A DNA stretch of 64,000 nt from an uncultured virus (IMG/VR IMGVR_UViG_3300030333_001711). Lineage: Duplodnaviria > Heunggongvirae > Uroviricota > Caudoviricetes. Positions within the stretch are counted from its first letter, which is position 1. Each line of letters begins with the position of its first letter. The stretch lies in the IMG/VR virus record IMGVR_UViG_3300030333_001711; one strand, given 5' to 3'. This document shows positions 56,067 to 61,275 of the stretch, piece by piece. The notes beneath the pieces are model-generated. The model worked only from the letters and a program-made list of their open reading frames with translations, did not search any database and had not been told where the DNA came from. Both the position numbers and the translations under genes were made by a program.

Positions 56067-58390
56067 ACGTAATTAAAAGGGATGGCACTGCCGAACCTCT
56101 CAACCTAGACAAGATACATCAAATGGTTGAGTTTGCCTGTGAAGACATAACAGGTGTATCATCATCACAAGTAGAAATGAATAGTGGTCTACAATTCTTT
56201 GATGGTATTGAATCAGAACAGATTCAAAATATTCTTATTAAATCTGCGAGTGATTTGATTAGTTTAGATTCACCTAACTATCAGTTCGTAGCAGCAAGAT
56301 TACTATTGTTTAGTGTTCGTAAACAAGTATTTGCTGATTGGAATAATACTGGGTATCCTAAACTCAAAAGTCACGTTGAGACTTGTGCAGAAGCAGGAGT
56401 ATATGATGGTGGAATCCTAAAGAAATATGACGATGAAGAGTGGGAAGAACTAAATTCTTATATAGATCACCAACGTTGCTATGGATTTACATATGCAGGG
56501 TTGAGACAGATCGTAGATAAGTATCTTGTACAAGACCGTAGCACTGGTAGAGTATATGAGACTCCTCAGTATATGTACATAATGGTTGCTGCAACCTTGT
56601 TCCAAGATTACCCTAAAGATAAAAGACTCGATTATGTCAAACGCTACTACACAGCAACCTCCAAAGGGAAAATCAACGTCCCAACTCCAGTTCTCGCAGG
56701 TGTTAGAACACCTCTTCGGCAGTTTGCGTCTTGCGTTTTGGTTGATGTTGACGACACCTTGGATAGTATTTTTACTTCTGATATGGCCATTGGTCGTTAT
56801 GTTGCACAAAGGGCAGGGATTGGTATCAACGCAGGTCGCATCCGTGGGATCAACAGTAAAATCCGTGGTGGAGAAGTCCAACACACAGGTGTTGTACCGT
56901 TCCTCAAAAAGTTTGAAAGCACTGTCAGATGTTGCACTCAGAATGGCATTAGAGGTGGATCAGCGACTGTCCACTTCCCCATCTGGCACCAAGAAATAGA
57001 AGATATTATTGTTCTAAAGAACAACAAAGGCACAGAGGATAACCGTGTCAGAAAATTAGACTATAGTATTCAGTTCAGTGAGTTATTCTATAGAAGGTTT
57101 ATCGAAAATGGAGAAATCACACTCTTCTCACCACACGATGTACCAGGATTATATGATGCTTTTGGAACTCCTGAGTTTGATGCACTGTATGCTCAGTATG
57201 AGTTGGATGAATCAATACCTAAGAAAAAGATAGGTGCACAAGATCTTATCCTAAACTTCTTGAAGGAAAGAGCAGAGACTGGTCGTCTATACATTATGAA
57301 TATAGACCACTGTAATAGTCATAGTTCATTCAAAGACAAGGTTAATATGAGTAACCTATGTCAGGAGATAACTCTACCTACCGATCCTTTAGATCATATA
57401 GATGAAGATGGTGGTGAGATTGCATTGTGTATTTTATCTGCTATTAACGTAGGTAAACTCCGTAGTCTTAATGAGTTAGAAGAACTATGTGATCTTGCAG
57501 TTCGTGGACTAGAAGAACTAATTGATTACCAACGCTATCCTGTTGCAGCAGCACGACGTAGCACCCTTGCAAGACGCTCCTTGGGCATCGGATTCATCGG
57601 TCTAGCACATTACCTAGCAAAGAATGGATTTAAGTATAACGATCAAGGTGCATATGATATAGTACATAACCTTACTGAAGCATTCCAATACAATCTTCTT
57701 AAAGCATCAAACGAGATAGCAAAAGAGAAGGGTGCTTGTGATGGTTTCTCTCACACAAAATACTCTGATGGAATCTTACCAATAGATACATATAAGAGTG
57801 AGGTAGATCAGATAACAAAAGAGGAATACAAGTATGATTGGGAATCTCTTAGGGCATCTATCTTGGAGCACGGTCTCAGGCACTCAACACTGTCCGCACA
57901 AATGCCTTCAGAGAGCAGTTCCGTTGTGTCAAATGCAACCAATGGAATCGAACCACCTAGAGACTACTTGTCCGTTAAGAAGTCAAAAAAAGGACCTCTT
58001 AAGCAGATTGTTCCAGGGTTTCCCCATCTGAAAAACAAATACACATTACTTTGGGATATGCCATCTAACGAAGGATATATCAAAGTCACATCAGTTATGC
58101 AAAAGTTTTTTGATCAGGCAATTAGTGGTAACTGGAGTTATAATCCAGAGAACTATGATAACGATGAAGTGCCTGTCTCTGTTATGGCACAGGATCTTCT
58201 TACCACATACAAATATGGTTGGAAAACTTCTTACTATCAGAATACATATGATGCTAAGAAAGAAATTGAAGAACCTGCACATCCAATGGGATGGAGGGAT
58301 GATATACCTATGGATGAAACCAATCAAAGATTAAATCAACTCATACAAGAATTAGAACAGGAGGAAGACTGTGACAGTTGCAAAGTTTAA
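56063..58390 (+). CDS. nrdA: Ribonucleotide reductase class Ia alpha subunit
   Basis: ATP cone VIKRDG, QFASCVL, SNLCQEI, MPSESSS, C-terminal CDSC. Confidence 0.97.
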   Translation: MNVIKRDGTAEPLNLDKIHQMVEFACEDITGVSSSQVEMNSGLQFFDGIESEQIQNILIKSASDLISLDSPNYQFVAARLLLFSVRKQVFADWNNTGYPKLKSHVETCAEAGVYDGGILKKYDDEEWEELNSYIDHQRCYGFTYAGLRQIVDKYLVQDRSTGRVYETPQYMYIMVAATLFQDYPKDKRLDYVKRYYTATSKGKINVPTPVLAGVRTPLRQFASCVLVDVDDTLDSIFTSDMAIGRYVAQRAGIGINAGRIRGINSKIRGGEVQHTGVVPFLKKFESTVRCCTQNGIRGGSATVHFPIWHQEIEDIIVLKNNKGTEDNRVRKLDYSIQFSELFYRRFIENGEITLFSPHDVPGLYDAFGTPEFDALYAQYELDESIPKKKIGAQDLILNFLKERAETGRLYIMNIDHCNSHSSFKDKVNMSNLCQEITLPTDPLDHIDEDGGEIALCILSAINVGKLRSLNELEELCDLAVRGLEELIDYQRYPVAAARRSTLARRSLGIGFIGLAHYLAKNGFKYNDQGAYDIVHNLTEAFQYNLLKASNEIAKEKGACDGFSHTKYSDGILPIDTYKSEVDQITKEEYKYDWESLRASILEHGLRHSTLSAQMPSESSSVVSNATNGIEPPRDYLSVKKSKKGPLKQIVPGFPHLKNKYTLLWDMPSNEGYIKVTSVMQKFFDQAISGNWSYNPENYDNDEVPVSVMAQDLLTTYKYGWKTSYYQNTYDAKKEIEEPAHPMGWRDDIPMDETNQRLNQLIQELEQEEDCDSCKV

Positions 58391-59564
58391 ACTTAACAAC
58401 GACGATCAACAAATGCCAAAGACAAAAATTAAAGGAGTAACGGTATTCAATAAAGAAAAGAACAATACCAATCCTCCTATGTTCTTCGGACCACCTCTAG
58501 GAGTACAAAGATATGATGGTGCTAAGTATCCAGTGTTTGATAAACTAACTAATCAACAACTAGGATACTTCTGGAGACCAGAAGAGGTCTCATTACAAAA
58601 AGATCGAAGTGACTTTGCTACATTAAATGAAACACAGAAACACATCTTCACGTCAAATCTCAGGTATCAGATCCTCCTTGACTCCGTACAAGGTCGTGGT
58701 CCTGGTCTTGCTTTCATCCCTTACTGTTCGATACCTGAGTTAGAATCTGCTATGATTGCGTGGGAATTTTTTGAGATGATACACTCAAAAAGTTACACAC
58801 ATATTATTAAGAATGTATATCCAGACCCATCAGTTGTCTTTGACACTATCTTAGACGATGAAAAGATACTTGCACGTGCTAAGAGTGTTACAGAAGCGTA
58901 TGATGACTTCATAAACGCTGCACAACAGTATGGATCTGGTAATATGTGGGTACACAACCTTGACGGTGTACCTCTCGGTCACTATGAACTCGTTGAATTA
59001 AAACGTAAACTTTATAGGGCAGTAGTAAATGTCAACATTTTGGAAGGAATTCGCTTCTATGTCTCCTTTGCGTGCTCGTTTGCATTTGGAGAACTTAAAC
59101 TTATGGAGGGATCAGCAAAAATTATCTCCCTCATCTCAAGAGACGAAGCACAACATCTTGTCCTTACTCAACAAATCCTCGGAAAGTGGGCACAAGGAGA
59201 CGACCCAGTAATGCTCCAGATAATTAAGGAGGAGAAAGATAGAGTAACTGAGATGTTTGTCAACGCAGTAAACGAAGAGAAAGCGTGGGCAGAATACTTA
59301 TTTAAAGATGGTAGTATGATAGGATTGAACGCTAAACTATTAGGACAGTATGTAGAATGGATTGCTAATCGTAGAATGAAAGCGATAGGAATAGATCCAA
59401 TCTATGATATACCTTTAAGAAACAATCCACTACCTTGGACAGAGCACTGGTTAAACTCCAGAGGACAACAGAATGCACCACAAGAAACTGAAATAGAATC
59501 ATATGTAGTAGGTGCAATCAAACAAGACGTAACCTCTGACACCTTCAAAGGGTTCGAGTTGTAA
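58371..59564 (+). CDS. nrdB: Ribonucleotide reductase class Ia beta subunit
   Basis: FWRPEEVSL, LDSVQGRG, EMIHSKSY, LEGIRFY, RDEAQH, PQETEIESY. Confidence 0.97.
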   Translation: MTVAKFKLNNDDQQMPKTKIKGVTVFNKEKNNTNPPMFFGPPLGVQRYDGAKYPVFDKLTNQQLGYFWRPEEVSLQKDRSDFATLNETQKHIFTSNLRYQILLDSVQGRGPGLAFIPYCSIPELESAMIAWEFFEMIHSKSYTHIIKNVYPDPSVVFDTILDDEKILARAKSVTEAYDDFINAAQQYGSGNMWVHNLDGVPLGHYELVELKRKLYRAVVNVNILEGIRFYVSFACSFAFGELKLMEGSAKIISLISRDEAQHLVLTQQILGKWAQGDDPVMLQIIKEEKDRVTEMFVNAVNEEKAWAEYLFKDGSMIGLNAKLLGQYVEWIANRRMKAIGIDPIYDIPLRNNPLPWTEHWLNSRGQQNAPQETEIESYVVGAIKQDVTSDTFKGFEL

Positions 59565-59592
59565 CAGAACGGGTATTAAAACCTTTTAGTTG

Positions 59593-59600
59593 TATAAATA
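59593..59600 (+). promoter_or_regulatory. T4-type late promoter upstream of the riboswitch locus
   Basis: Exact TATAAATA. Confidence 0.7.
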
Positions 59601-59660
59601 TATGTGAATGGTGACATTTCTCTAAGAATATGTTATCATTATTTACAAACGTTCATCTAA

Positions 59661-59867
59661 ATGATTAGTCTTGCACTATCGGGGTTTCTAATCGCTGAAC
59701 ACAATCCATCTCATTGGGAGATGTCTTGTTCAGAGTGGAACCAGAATAGGGTAGAGATTATGAGCGATCAGAATCTTATACCTGATGCCAAGGAGTATCT
59801 TATAGATTACTTCAGAACAAAGGTATCCGACGATAGATGTGATGTCTTTATCATTGGACGCAAGTAA
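59661..59867 (+). CDS. Small protein nested in riboswitch unit 1 (hydrophobic N-terminus, two Cys)
   Basis: 68-aa ORF; start in 5' P2 strand, stop in GCAAGTAA. Confidence 0.6.
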   Translation: MISLALSGFLIAEHNPSHWEMSCSEWNQNRVEIMSDQNLIPDAKEYLIDYFRTKVSDDRCDVFIIGRK

Positions 59868-59891
59868 GTCGCGGAACGGTACGTTCATCCT

Positions 59892-60080
59892 ATGATTCAT
59901 CTACTTGCTTTACTCATTGCAACTAACGGTTTTACCTGTGCAGAGATTGCTGCAAAGGTAGAGAAAGCAAAGAGTTATCCAGATCTTACACCTCAAGAGA
60001 GGGAAGAACTTATAGAACTCTATACAGTTTATTTGCCAGAGGCGATGGGAGTAGAATGTAATTGGGACGCAAACGACTGA
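59892..60080 (+). CDS. Small protein nested in riboswitch unit 2 (hydrophobic N-terminus, two Cys)
   Basis: 62-aa ORF ending WDAND, encoded by aptamer nucleotides TGGGACGCAAACGACTGA. Confidence 0.6.
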   Translation: MIHLLALLIATNGFTCAEIAAKVEKAKSYPDLTPQEREELIELYTVYLPEAMGVECNWDAND

Positions 60081-60124
60081 AGGAACGGATCTTAAAAACA
60101 TCCAACTACTTTAGGAGTAAACAA

Positions 60125-60253
60125 ATGGCACAAGTAACTTATCGTGGTATCCCTTATGATACCGACGCTCGTGTACAGAGTCAGAAGACTCAACAACCAC
60201 AACAAAAGAATCTCGTTTATAGAGGTCTAAAAGTAAAGGAGGAGAACAAATGA
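60125..60253 (+). CDS. DUF4278-like YRG-motif peptide, 42 aa
   Basis: MAQVTYRGIPYDT...LVYRGLK; AGGAG RBS; typical partner of glutamine riboswitches. Confidence 0.8.
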   Translation: MAQVTYRGIPYDTDARVQSQKTQQPQQKNLVYRGLKVKEENK

Positions 60254-60342
60254 TGATTGTTACTCAGATAACCCTCCTTATGGCAGTTGCCCTTTCACTA
60301 TTTTATTTTGAAGTCCGTCTACTGCAAAGATTGGAGGGATAA
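60250..60342 (+). CDS. Small TM peptide, 30 aa
   Basis: Read by eye: MMIVTQITLLMAVALSLFYFEVRLLQRLEG; ATGA overlap, GGAG RBS. Confidence 0.5.
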   Translation: MMIVTQITLLMAVALSLFYFEVRLLQRLEG

Positions 60343-60347
60343 GGTCT

Positions 60348-60536
60348 ATGTTAAGAATCCATTTTAGTTGGGGTCTTGACTATGATTTACCAGAGTATGA
60401 TCCTGAGATCCACGATCCGAAAGAGGTCTTCGCTATGCTATGCTATAGAGGAGTTCATTACGCTAAATGGGTTCGATTAGATACATTCAATATAAATAAC
60501 TGGTTTCTGCATAACCCTAGACAAACAGAAAATTAA
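60348..60536 (+). CDS. Small protein with YRG motif
   Basis: LCYRGVHYAK; GGAGG RBS. Confidence 0.6.
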   Translation: MLRIHFSWGLDYDLPEYDPEIHDPKEVFAMLCYRGVHYAKWVRLDTFNINNWFLHNPRQTEN

Positions 60537-60547
60537 TGTTATAATAT

Positions 60548-60574
60548 AGAGATCCGCAAGGGTCTCTTTTTTTT
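60548..60574 (+). terminator. Rho-independent terminator
   Basis: AGAGATCC-GCAA-GGGTCTCT followed by T run. Confidence 0.85.
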
Positions 60575-60609
60575 ACTCGAACTAAATAATGACAAAAAGG
60601 AAACGTCCA

Positions 60610-61275
60610 ATGAAAATATTTCTAGACTGTTCTGATCCAGAATTACTTAAACCTGCAATAGAAACAGGTTTAGTTGATGGAGTAACAACAAACCCATCTC
60701 TAATGAAAAAGCAAGGGATGGAACCTATGGATGTAATCCAAAAAATTACAGAATTATTTTCGTGGAGTTCGTCAGTTAGTGCTGAAGTCGTTGGAGAAAC
60801 AGCAGACGATATGCTAGAGATGGCAGTAGACTACTATCAGATAGCACCTAACGTAACAATTAAATTACCCTGTAACGTAGAAGGATTGAAAGCGTGTAGT
60901 GATCTTACAGAAGATGGTATCAAAACAAATGTAACTTTAATCTTCTCAGAAGCACAAGCAGTTCTTGCAGCAAAAGCAGGTGCAACATATGTCTCACCTT
61001 TTGTAGGACGTGTTAATGACAATTCATTTGATGGTATAGGATTGATTAAAGGTATATCAGATTTGTATATGATGCACGACATAGAGACACAGATCTTATC
61101 TGCTTCTATAAGGGATGTTAAACAGGTCACAGACAGTTGGAAAGCAGGTGCTGATGTAGTTACTATGCCAATAGGTATTTTTTGGAAAATGTATCAACAC
61201 GTCTTGACAGACATAGGACTTGCACGTTTTAATGAAGACTGGAAAGCATTACAATCTGACTTACAAAATGGATAA
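60610..61275 (+). CDS. talC: Transaldolase (TalC/FSA family)
   Basis: MKIFLD, GVTTNPSL, TIKLP, NVTLIFS, YVSPFVGR, ASIR. Confidence 0.95.
   Translation: MKIFLDCSDPELLKPAIETGLVDGVTTNPSLMKKQGMEPMDVIQKITELFSWSSSVSAEVVGETADDMLEMAVDYYQIAPNVTIKLPCNVEGLKACSDLTEDGIKTNVTLIFSEAQAVLAAKAGATYVSPFVGRVNDNSFDGIGLIKGISDLYMMHDIETQILSASIRDVKQVTDSWKAGADVVTMPIGIFWKMYQHVLTDIGLARFNEDWKALQSDLQNG

Follow-up and report, generated by a model that had tools for sequence, protein, structure and literature searches.

A candidate composite glutamine-riboswitch sensor with a small gene in each of its two variable hairpins in a T4-like cyanophage

We analyzed a 64,000-nucleotide (nt) stretch of DNA (hereafter the window) from an uncultured virus, IMG/VR record IMGVR_UViG_3300030333_001711, whose source is a T4-like cyanomyovirus, and focused on an element located between nrdB (58371-59564) and talC (60589-61275). 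The closest phage records are S-TIM4, P-RSM4, P-SSM7, P-SSM4, and P-RSM6, in which the small open reading frames (ORFs) at this site are annotated as hypothetical proteins (clusters T4-GC 429-432). Positions 59650-60088 appear to be one composite glutamine-riboswitch sensor of the kind that precedes cyanophage DUF4278/YRG genes. It has two predicted ligand-binding cores, each composed of CGUUC, a variable hairpin, a CGC joining strand, and GGAACGG, and each variable hairpin is apparently stretched around a complete small gene under purifying selection. The pieces of the element are listed below; P1, P2a, P2b, and P3 denote helices, and Gln-II denotes the glutamine-II riboswitch.

59650-59654, + strand: CGUUC, 5' strand of P1, first (outer) core; kept in 20 of 20 compact tandems
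59656-59665, + strand: 5' strand of variable hairpin 1 (P2a); includes the ORF1 start codon (59661-59663)
59661-59867, + strand: ORF1, 68 amino acids (aa), ending GRK-stop; T4-GC 429/phrog_6471 family (phrog_6471, E 3.4e-27)
59850-59858, + strand: AUCAUUGGA, 3' strand of P2a; doubles as ORF1 codons I-I-G
59859-59866, + strand: CGCAAGUA, joining strand of core 1; its CGC is C17-G18-C19 of Gln-II and its AAGUA is half of an E-loop
59867-59871, + strand: AGUCG, 5' strand of the putative shared helix P3; complementary to 60074-60078
59873-59879, + strand: GGAACGG, first 3' strand of P1 and a G pairing with the CGC strand (motif match)
59882-59886, + strand: CGUUC, second copy (motif match)
59888-59892, + strand: UCCUA, 5' strand of variable hairpin 2 (P2b), ending on the first base (A) of the ORF2 start codon
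59892-60080, + strand: ORF2, 62 aa, ending WDAND-stop; T4-GC 430/phrog_504 family (phrog_504, E 6.9e-11)
60063-60067, + strand: UGGGA, 3' strand of P2b; doubles as ORF2 codons W-D
60068-60073, + strand: CGCAAA, joining strand of core 2, without AGUA (motif match)
60074-60078, + strand: CGACU, 3' strand of the putative shared helix P3 (assigned by covariation)
60079-60088, + strand: GAAG (E-loop half, 60079-60082), GAACG (3' strand of the outer P1, 60083-60087), and a G
60087-60103, + strand: short hairpin GGAU...AUCC directly 3' of the aptamer (by eye)

A preliminary description of this DNA had proposed a doubled glutamine aptamer, and its motifs all lie where it placed them, with CGTTCATC at 59650 and 59882 and GGACGCAA...GGAACG at 59856-59878 and 60065-60087. 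The 64 kilobases (kb) contain two copies of the composite 3' motif, GGACGCAA-N(4-24)-GGAACG, where 100 shuffles predict 0.00. CGTTCATC alone is weak evidence because it is found five times where 1.16 are expected. The closing stems also pair as proposed. P2a comprises nine base pairs (bp; UA, CG, UG, AU, AU, UA, GC, AU, and UA, with A59661 bulged after the fifth), and P2b comprises five, which form in the ViennaRNA minimum-energy fold with pair probabilities of 0.65-0.97. The loops of 184 and 170 nt are far beyond the norm of the type-I glutamine riboswitch family. The stem of the hairpin at 60087-60103 varies in relatives and stays pairable by eye (GGAC/GUC, GGAG/UUCC, and GGGG/UCCC).

We compared these pieces with the two known glutamine riboswitch types. 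Both type-I P1 strands are present in two copies (59650-59654 and 59882-59886; 59874-59878 and 60083-60087), and P2a and P2b each have the type-I variable hairpin, which follows CGUUCA and is closed by U-A, C-G, and C-G. The type-I E-loop, with AAGUA (59862-59866) and GAAG (60079-60082) flanking P3, is obtained only when the two units are read as one. The CGUUC at 59650-59654 corresponds to C1-C5 of the Gln-II structure, which line the ligand site in the crystal (PMC6698751). The ligand-site bases that this source names (C1, G2, G18, C19, C39, G40, and G41) are intact in both cores (CGUUC, ACGCA, and GGAACGG). Neither unit has the enclosing hairpin of Gln-II, in which GGAACGG sits in the loop and the 3' strand follows directly: the partner of 59867-59871 in unit 1 lies 200 nt downstream, past the second core, and unit 2 is without such an enclosing stem. 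The type-I model (RF01739, gathering score 35 bits) has 0 matches in the window because of the two long insertions, and we therefore call the element a derived variant of glutamine riboswitch type I, not a plain member.

Natural compact relatives, together with an nhmmer profile run on the intact window, stood in for deletion of the loops. The profile, built from 20 compact tandems, has exactly two matches in the window, in order. The first (59852-59892, E 1.2e-8) spans profile positions 16-60, and the second (60063-60088, E 0.0034) spans positions 65-93, so that the second profile break (positions 61-64) is the loop of hairpin 2. Profile positions 1-15, which hold the 5' strand and hairpin 1, are unmatched in the window; what places a break at hairpin 1 is therefore CGTTCATC at 59650 together with the pairing, not the profile.

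Relatives were collected in two ways. A junction pattern (3' core, short linker, CGTTCA) retrieved at least 120 loci from viral contigs, which together with the phage records and the source window make up at least 125 locus strands. A second set of 83 loci was picked by protein similarity alone, using single-protein queries, of which the ORF2 query gave 3 loci. Among the at least 125 locus strands, 50 have a short first and an ORF-filled second hairpin, 21 have two ORF-filled hairpins, 17 two short ones, 6 an ORF-filled first and a short second hairpin, and 1 is short-ORF-short; the remaining 30 are single or unclassified. Hairpin spans are bimodal among the matches listed (14-50 nt or 141-227 nt), and all four short and ORF-filled combinations are found among them. 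The triple arrangement (L093, 300-564) is short, ORF-filled, short; its last two units share the compensated helix AGUCA/UGACU, and its first unit is of the long form described below. A variant second hairpin occurs in three loci (L056, L077, and L079), where CGUUCA-UUCGCUAU...AUAGCGAA-CGCA has UC/GA at the stem base in place of the usual CC/GG, altered on both sides.

The comparison of phages with short and ORF-filled P2 that had been suggested at the outset yielded compact relatives with short hairpins at the same site, with scores of up to 43.6 bits. At the nrdB-talC site occupied in the source phage, P-RSM6 and P-SSM7 have compact first units with RF01739 scores of 34.9 and 31 bits (gathering score 35) and with the hairpins CCCC-AUA-GGGG and CCC-AGAA-GGG, and each unit is directly followed by a second unit whose hairpin holds an ORF2 homologue. 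The P-RSM6 unit also scores 33.1 bits on the Gln-II family RF01704 (gathering score 33). Both hairpins are filled in S-TIM4, P-SSM4, and P-HM2, as in the source. We scanned six compact tandems from viral contigs with Rfam: two match Glutamine over their full length as a single hit above the gathering score (43.6 and 38.4 bits); two have a single unit that exceeds this score (36.7 and 35.3); and two have a best match just below it (34.2 and 34.1). A junction-pattern scan of genome contigs found a full tandem in 2 of the 120 matches listed, the rest being mostly chance matches in unrelated bacteria, and is uninformative about host chromosomes. The two full tandems, each with a nested ORF, are on a 194-kb contig of a Synechococcus metagenome-assembled genome (MAG; L263) and on a 16.6-kb contig binned as a Rhodospirillaceae MAG (L268), and are possibly phage DNA binned with bacterial genomes. 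The latter has a further complementary pair of shared-helix strands, GUCAA/UUGAC.

The preliminary description took the two units for independent aptamers, and this part of it did not hold. Unit 1 ends in CGCAAGUA-AGUCG-C-GGAACGG and has the AAGUA half of the E-loop without GAAG, and unit 2 ends in CGCAAA-CGACU-GAAG-GAACGG and has GAAG without AGUA. In place of two separate folds, we found a helix common to both cores, AGUCG (59867-59871) with CGACU (60074-60078), that is marked by compensatory changes. We tallied this helix in 196 tandems with both segments, which have 28 distinct combinations. Its short form occurs as AGUCG/CGACU (68), AGUCA/UGACU (4), GGUCG/CGACU (2), AAUCG/CGAUU (1), and AUUCG/CGAAU (1), with 5 of 5 pairs in each. 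Its long form occurs as AGCCGACU/AGCCGACU (66), AGCCGACA/UGCCGACU (12), AGCCGACU/AGUUGACU (11), GGACGG/CCGCCC (2), and others, and in this form A.C or C.A oppositions recur at positions 3 and 6. The eight-position long form keeps these oppositions even in a rewritten helix, GGACGACG/CGCCGCCC (e.g., L024, 614-621 with 656-663), which suggests that they are conserved non-canonical pairs. The change to AGCCGACA/UGCCGACU would break a mini-hairpin within each unit and keeps the pair between units.

In the 20 compact tandems, the nested structure set out below is paired in 93.6% of cells, compared with 87.6 +/- 0.6% after shuffling (0 of 500 as high) and 31-56% in slid registers, and three pairs of the shared helix are altered on both sides. 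Compensated forms of the helix are also found in loci with two ORF-filled hairpins (S-TIM4 and L085). Rfam treats each of two compact short-form tandems (L019 and L052) as one 87-89-nt Glutamine aptamer that carries the second core as a 38-41-nt insert in P3, and the scores of 43.6 and 38.4 bits are above those of either unit alone. Because one helix is common to both, the two cores would be interlocked, not independent.

The alternative is that two aptamers lie side by side, each CGUUC pairing with the nearest downstream GGAACG, and that each unit binds one glutamine in a pseudo-cooperative tandem. Such glutamine doublets (157) and triplets (4) are catalogued in PMC9481103, the identical P1 strands permit this pairing, and the best Rfam matches in long-form relatives are single units (35.3 and 27.8 bits). 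We nevertheless regard it as improbable here. Each unit lacks one half of the E-loop, and the inter-unit helix shows varied compensatory changes, some of which, as in the 12 loci with AGCCGACA/UGCCGACU, would break the intra-unit mini-hairpin. Once the inter-unit helix is present, the side-by-side P1 pairing becomes doubly pseudoknotted, and its fold lies 9.6 kcal/mol over the ViennaRNA minimum. The linker between units is short, like a hairpin loop, in every protein-selected locus parsed.

We prefer, without regarding it as proven, a fully nested topology. The outer core would have type-I-like order (CGUUC 59650, P2a, CGCAAGUA, P3, GAAG, and GAACG 60083-60087) and would enclose an inner, circularly permuted core (GAACG 59874-59878, loop, CGUUC 59882-59886, P2b, and CGCAAA). 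The inner P1 can form as a local 5-bp hairpin of 59874-59878 and 59882-59886 with the loop GUA. This topology is preferred because it is pseudoknot-free, keeps the strands on either side of the shared helix in type-I order, fits the invariably short linker (3-5 nt in all 79 of the 83 protein-selected loci that were parsed, where the pattern allowed 1-6 nt), and is the cheaper fold in ViennaRNA (+7.3 kcal/mol over the minimum, as opposed to +9.6). Strand exchange of this kind is physically possible, as the strand-swapped dimer of the Gln-II crystal shows (PMC6698751).

ORF1 fills the loop of P2a and ends in UAA within the AAGUA|A of its core, and ORF2 fills the loop of P2b and ends in UGA overlapping CGACU|GAAG. 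Both starts lie in or near the 5' P2 strand, and both sets of final codons and stops are written in conserved aptamer bases, as had been noticed from the letters alone. The arrangement recurs in relatives. Among the matches listed, every one of the 114 long loops contains an intact ORF whose ATG lies 10-16 nt past the start of CGTTCA; its stop lies within the 3' core in 97 and no more than 13 nt before the core in the other 17. The nested proteins of these matches form five clusters of 67, 31, 8, 7, and 1 members, and one cluster occurs in either hairpin (seven times in the second, once in the first). In the 83 loci selected by protein, CGTTCA lies no more than 16 nt 5' of the ATG in 82, and the 3' core is at the stop in 73. 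Seven of the ten misses of the 3' core have CGTTCAGCC...GGCCGCAAGTA (GGCCGCA), in which the first hairpin pair is changed from U-A to G-C on both sides, about 200 nt apart; the other three are cut contigs. In 0 of 80 complete protein-selected loci does a member of a nested family lie outside an aptamer.

Median pairwise ratios of nonsynonymous to synonymous change (dN/dS) in the four larger clusters are 0.40, 0.22, 0.17, and 0.26 (0.22 for the ORF1 family and 0.40 for the ORF2 family), figures that are rough because the two largest clusters are almost saturated for synonymous change. Variation is highest at the third codon position. Since these medians, which the preliminary description had asked for, are well below 1, the nested ORFs are, as far as their sequences tell, real genes under purifying selection. 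They end in three frames relative to the core (GGA CGC AAG UAA; G GAC GCA AAC GAC UGA; and UAG|GAC), which argues that the core is kept as RNA and not as codons, because the same bases are read in different ways.

The hairpin stems are of equal length with and without a gene. Counted from the base, the ORF-filled units (101 distinct) have a mean of 4.47 contiguous stem pairs and the compact units (66) a mean of 4.53, compared with 3.27 +/- 0.11 for shuffled partners. The fourth stem pair is CG in 53 units, UA in 25, UG in 19, and AU in 17, and is unpaired in 21 of 138. In 43 distinct tandems with two ORF-filled hairpins, pairing with the own strand (4.51 and 5.98) exceeds cross-unit pairing (3.05 and 3.05). 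The stems of the variable hairpins are thus kept, and they covary, in ORF-filled relatives. The riboswitch might still be dead in these forms, with its pieces persisting as protein termini, translation signals, or recombination anchors, as could be read from the missing Rfam match in the window and from a thermodynamic fold that does not favor the long-range helices. We consider such a relic very improbable: the same core bases are found in three reading frames and past the stops, where GGAACGG is non-coding, the stems and the shared helix covary within ORF-filled loci, the stems match compact units in length, and the ligand-site bases are intact in both cores.

The main rival is that the hairpin loops are merely insertion-tolerant sites in which genes have lodged passively. 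The nested genes would then use the operon promoter with no selected link to glutamine, and the sensor would control the DUF4278 gene alone, on ribosome-free transcripts. The hairpin loops of the family are free in length and sequence, and the four combinations of short and filled hairpins imply that the sensor works evolutionarily with or without genes. The protein cluster found in either hairpin would fit a cassette that recombines between conserved flanks, and the module occurs in varied genome neighborhoods (see below). A lodged gene should arrive with a spacer and a ribosome-binding site of its own, whereas all 114 starts among the matches listed have the same close spacing from CGTTCA, and the ends lie in or within 13 nt of the 3' core across five clusters and three frames. 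Likewise, no complete protein-selected locus has a member of the nested families outside the aptamer, and physical exclusion between ribosome and stem applies whether it was selected or not. We judge passive lodging unlikely, though less so than the other two alternatives.

The two nested proteins had been described as paralogous from their shared features, and profile alignment makes them distant paralogues (hhalign probability 84.6%, E 6.8e-6). AlphaFold2 models of ORF1 (mean predicted local distance difference test score (pLDDT) 76.9, helical) and ORF2 (mean pLDDT 81.2) each place a predicted N-terminal hydrophobic helix before a helical hairpin with one Cys per end. A signal-peptide-like N-terminus is seen by eye in only some nested families, and export is a prediction. 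Pfam has no match for ORF1 or ORF2, the ORF2 model has no Foldseek match in the PDB at E<=0.001, and the protein atlas returned matches to unnamed viral clusters only, with no function. The ORF2 family comprises at least 460 clusters at 90% identity, all of which are unnamed or phage hypothetical proteins, and tblastn matches of ORF1 come from 56 phage records, all cyanophage or marine virus.

The remaining features of the transcription unit are the following.

59593-59600, + strand: TATAAATA, T4-late-promoter-like box (sequence)
59611-59639, + strand: sigma-70-like promoter GTGACA-17-TATCAT with TG extension; 10 of 12 matches to consensus
60113-60117, + strand: Shine-Dalgarno AGGAG, 5' of the DUF4278/YRG gene (sequence)
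60125-60253, + strand: DUF4278/YRG peptide gene, 42 aa; Pfam DUF4278 (PF14105), E 1.7e-5
60250-60342, + strand: 30-aa hydrophobic ORF (ORF call)
60348-60536, + strand: 62-aa ORF, phrog_6192 (E 6e-27, profile match)
60548-60575, + strand: intrinsic-terminator-like hairpin (60548-60567) and T run, closing the unit 3' of the fifth small ORF

Two candidate promoters precede the unit. The TATAAATA box resembles the T4 late promoter consensus, and the sigma-70-like promoter has a predicted RNA start a few bases 5' of the aptamer. Compact relatives have TTGACT-17-TATAAT at an equal distance from CGTTCA. From sequence, either the late-type box or the sigma-70-like promoter may serve the unit. The peptide gene at 60125-60253 matches Pfam DUF4278 at 25.5 bits (cut-off 25.3), carries the YRG motif twice, and is the normal target of this riboswitch class. 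Of the 120 distinct ORFs that come first 3' of such tandems, all have Y[RK]G, and 119 have it twice. The ATG of the 30-aa hydrophobic ORF overlaps the stop of the DUF4278 gene (ATGA), and, by eye, P-SSM4, S-TIM4, and P-HM2 have a similar unannotated ORF 3' of the YRG gene. The product of this 30-aa ORF resembles a membrane peptide made by translational coupling. The 62-aa ORF has a weak DUF4278 match (E 0.16) at CYRGVHYAKW and may be a second, divergent YRG peptide of the same operon. Inside ORF1, over conserved HWEM codons, lies a 6-bp inverted repeat (CATCTC-ATTGG-GAGATG, 59707-59723), which was flagged as terminator-like on both strands and is probably incidental.

The module is found in different neighborhoods. 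It follows nrdB in the source, S-TIM4, P-SSM7, and P-RSM6, pstS and a manA RNA in P-SSM4 (L003), and a glycine-dehydrogenase-like gene in P-HM2 (L332). The manA RNA (RF01745, 184-188 bits) adjoins the module in P-SSM4 (L003, 665-850) and in P-RSM6 (L004, 1645-1830). The unit of promoter, sensor, and YRG gene acts like a cassette that can move as a whole.

In one marine RNA library (run X1), two contigs that match with 0 differences span 59606-60086 (depth 69.8) and 60100-60524 (depth 84.9), and the depth over the nrdB and talC flanks is 0-5. The first of these metatranscriptome contigs starts at 59606, 3' of TATAAATA, which is a weak hint since contigs carry no RNA-end information, and the second stops short of the terminator-like hairpin. 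Parts of the stretch are also present in libraries of three further studies. Contigs that join 59890 to 60065 via 9-10 other letters represent co-occurring relatives with a short second hairpin. Peaks in the RNA run at 59864-59910 and 60052-60145 are short contigs from many relatives, and uncovered bins are uninformative. A layout with two ORF-filled hairpins like that of the source phage is present in the cultured phage P-HM2, whose homologues PHM2_179, 180, and 181 are transcribed in infected cells and are classed as Mid/Mid/Mid in light and as Late in dark (PMC5082946, supplement file 6).

We estimate a probability of roughly 60% that 59650-60088 is a composite glutamine-riboswitch sensor with two tied cores, genes in its hairpins, and competition between translation and folding. 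Several points count against it. Rfam has no glutamine family match in the 64-kb window at gathering score, or in 59500-60400 at E<=10; no Rfam family reaches gathering score anywhere in the window, and the sole match of these searches is a chance mir-27. The main locus set was gathered with a pattern that requires the conserved junction, and many of the viral contigs are close relatives, hence the counts are not independent events. P1 partners are unassignable by covariation because the P1 strands are invariant, and the conservation of the stems is partly confounded with coding (the ATG, and Trp and Gly codons). In the ViennaRNA fold of 59647-60130, which has no tertiary or ligand terms, P2b alone among the sensor helices belongs to the minimum-energy structure, pair probabilities do not exceed 0.055 for P2a, P3, or either P1 option, and the nested sensor fold lies 7.3 kcal/mol over the minimum. 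Helices that span 190-430 nt of translated mRNA are kinetically disfavored. The RNA contigs may reflect DNA carry-over, and RNA ends are not readable from them. Glutamine binding, translation of the nested ORFs, and the competition between them are predictions.

In the composite sensor, both start codons lie in or against the hairpin stems, 10-11 nt past the CGUUC strand, and both stops lie in core bases near the shared helix. A ribosome initiating at 59661 or 59892 would cover the adjacent CGUUC strand and the 5' stem strand, and one terminating at 59865-59867 or 60078-60080 would cover the shared helix and the following GGAACGG. Because these positions overlap strands of the sensor, translation of either ORF would be expected to unfold both cores, and at each stage of translating it, from initiation through elongation to termination, a ribosome would have to melt the sensor. 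Conversely, the folded, glutamine-bound sensor would bury both start sites. In the studied members of this class, glutamine binding switches on the downstream DUF4278/IF17 gene (PMC6212724), and a reciprocal output would therefore be expected, with the nested proteins made at low glutamine and the YRG peptide at high glutamine. At low glutamine, the sensor would be unfolded and the nested two-Cys proteins made; high glutamine would favor the state that turns on the DUF4278 peptide, the directions of these effects being inferred. A more far-reaching proposal, which we hold only tentatively, is a translation-gated metabolite sensor, whose interlocked cores would fold only when the nested genes are untranslated and would partition expression reciprocally between the nested proteins and the IF17-like peptide. 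The nested proteins would then probably be exported and disulfide-stapled at low glutamine, and the IF17-like peptide would target host nitrogen assimilation at high glutamine.

Group I and group II introns carry ORFs in peripheral loops that serve RNA mobility or splicing and are removed with the RNA. They resemble the element in that a helix of a structured RNA closes around a whole gene in an insertion-tolerant loop; here, in contrast, an mRNA leader contains the structured RNA, a metabolite sensor whose bases write the ends of the genes. Leader-peptide attenuation and upstream ORFs in riboswitch expression platforms (e.g., mycobacterial B12 rpfB) are similar in that translation of a short ORF and an alternative fold exclude each other. 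In those cases, the ORFs are in the platform and the peptides are usually unconserved, whereas the proteins here are conserved and encoded inside the ligand-binding domain.

The type-I glutamine riboswitch (glnA RNA, RF01739; Synechocystis gifB/IF17 leader, PMC6212724) has the same CGUUC/GAACG P1, a variable hairpin closed by U-A, C-G, and C-G, the ACGNAAGUA joining strand, P3, GAAG before GAACG, and a position upstream of a DUF4278 gene, and compact phage relatives exceed the gathering score of the family. Here, by contrast, P3 would be built between two cores, the second inside the first, a gene of 62-68 codons fills each variable hairpin, and the Rfam model is blind to the window. With Gln-II (the Downstream-peptide motif, RF01704, of marine picocyanobacteria; PMC6698751) the element shares ACGCA rather than ACGGA, GGAACGG, all named ligand-site bases, short YRG peptides, and, in the P-RSM6 unit, a score of 33.1 bits against the gathering score of 33; the strand-swapped crystal dimer shows that this fold tolerates helices from two cores. 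It differs in that the Gln-II helix after GGAACGG is closed by the immediately following strand, whereas the partner here lies past the whole second core, and in that no ORF is known in the Gln-II hairpin. The tandem glutamine riboswitches of PMC9481103 (157 doublets and 4 triplets) likewise place two or three aptamers ahead of one gene, L093 being the triplet in our set. They are described as separate pseudo-cooperative units, and the excerpted text of PMC9481103 mentions neither a shared helix nor a nested ORF. Cyanophage glnA RNAs and tandem glutamine riboswitches have thus already been published (PMC9964418, PMC2864571, and PMC9481103). Within the excerpts of the literature searched, we found no ORF inside a glutamine aptamer and no helix common to two cores; this scope excludes Ames and Breaker 2011, as well as the additional files of PMC2864571, both of which may bear on novelty.

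Riboswitch aptamers are usually treated as compact non-coding domains, and Rfam-type models miss the ORF-filled form entirely. At this locus, a validated sensor class appears with conserved protein genes inside its ligand-binding domain and with cores apparently joined by a common helix. The layout is present in the cultured phages P-HM2, P-SSM4, S-TIM4, P-RSM6, and P-SSM7 and is thus directly testable. If the sensor binds glutamine, translation would necessarily compete with the long-range folding of the aptamer, so that a single sensor would exert reciprocal control, and the meaning of tandem glutamine riboswitches would need revision. Two large unannotated cyanophage protein families would then be linked to the nitrogen status of infected Prochlorococcus and Synechococcus hosts. 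A translation-gated sensor, if true, would be a regulatory principle undescribed for any riboswitch and would be used by a large share of marine T4-like cyanophages.

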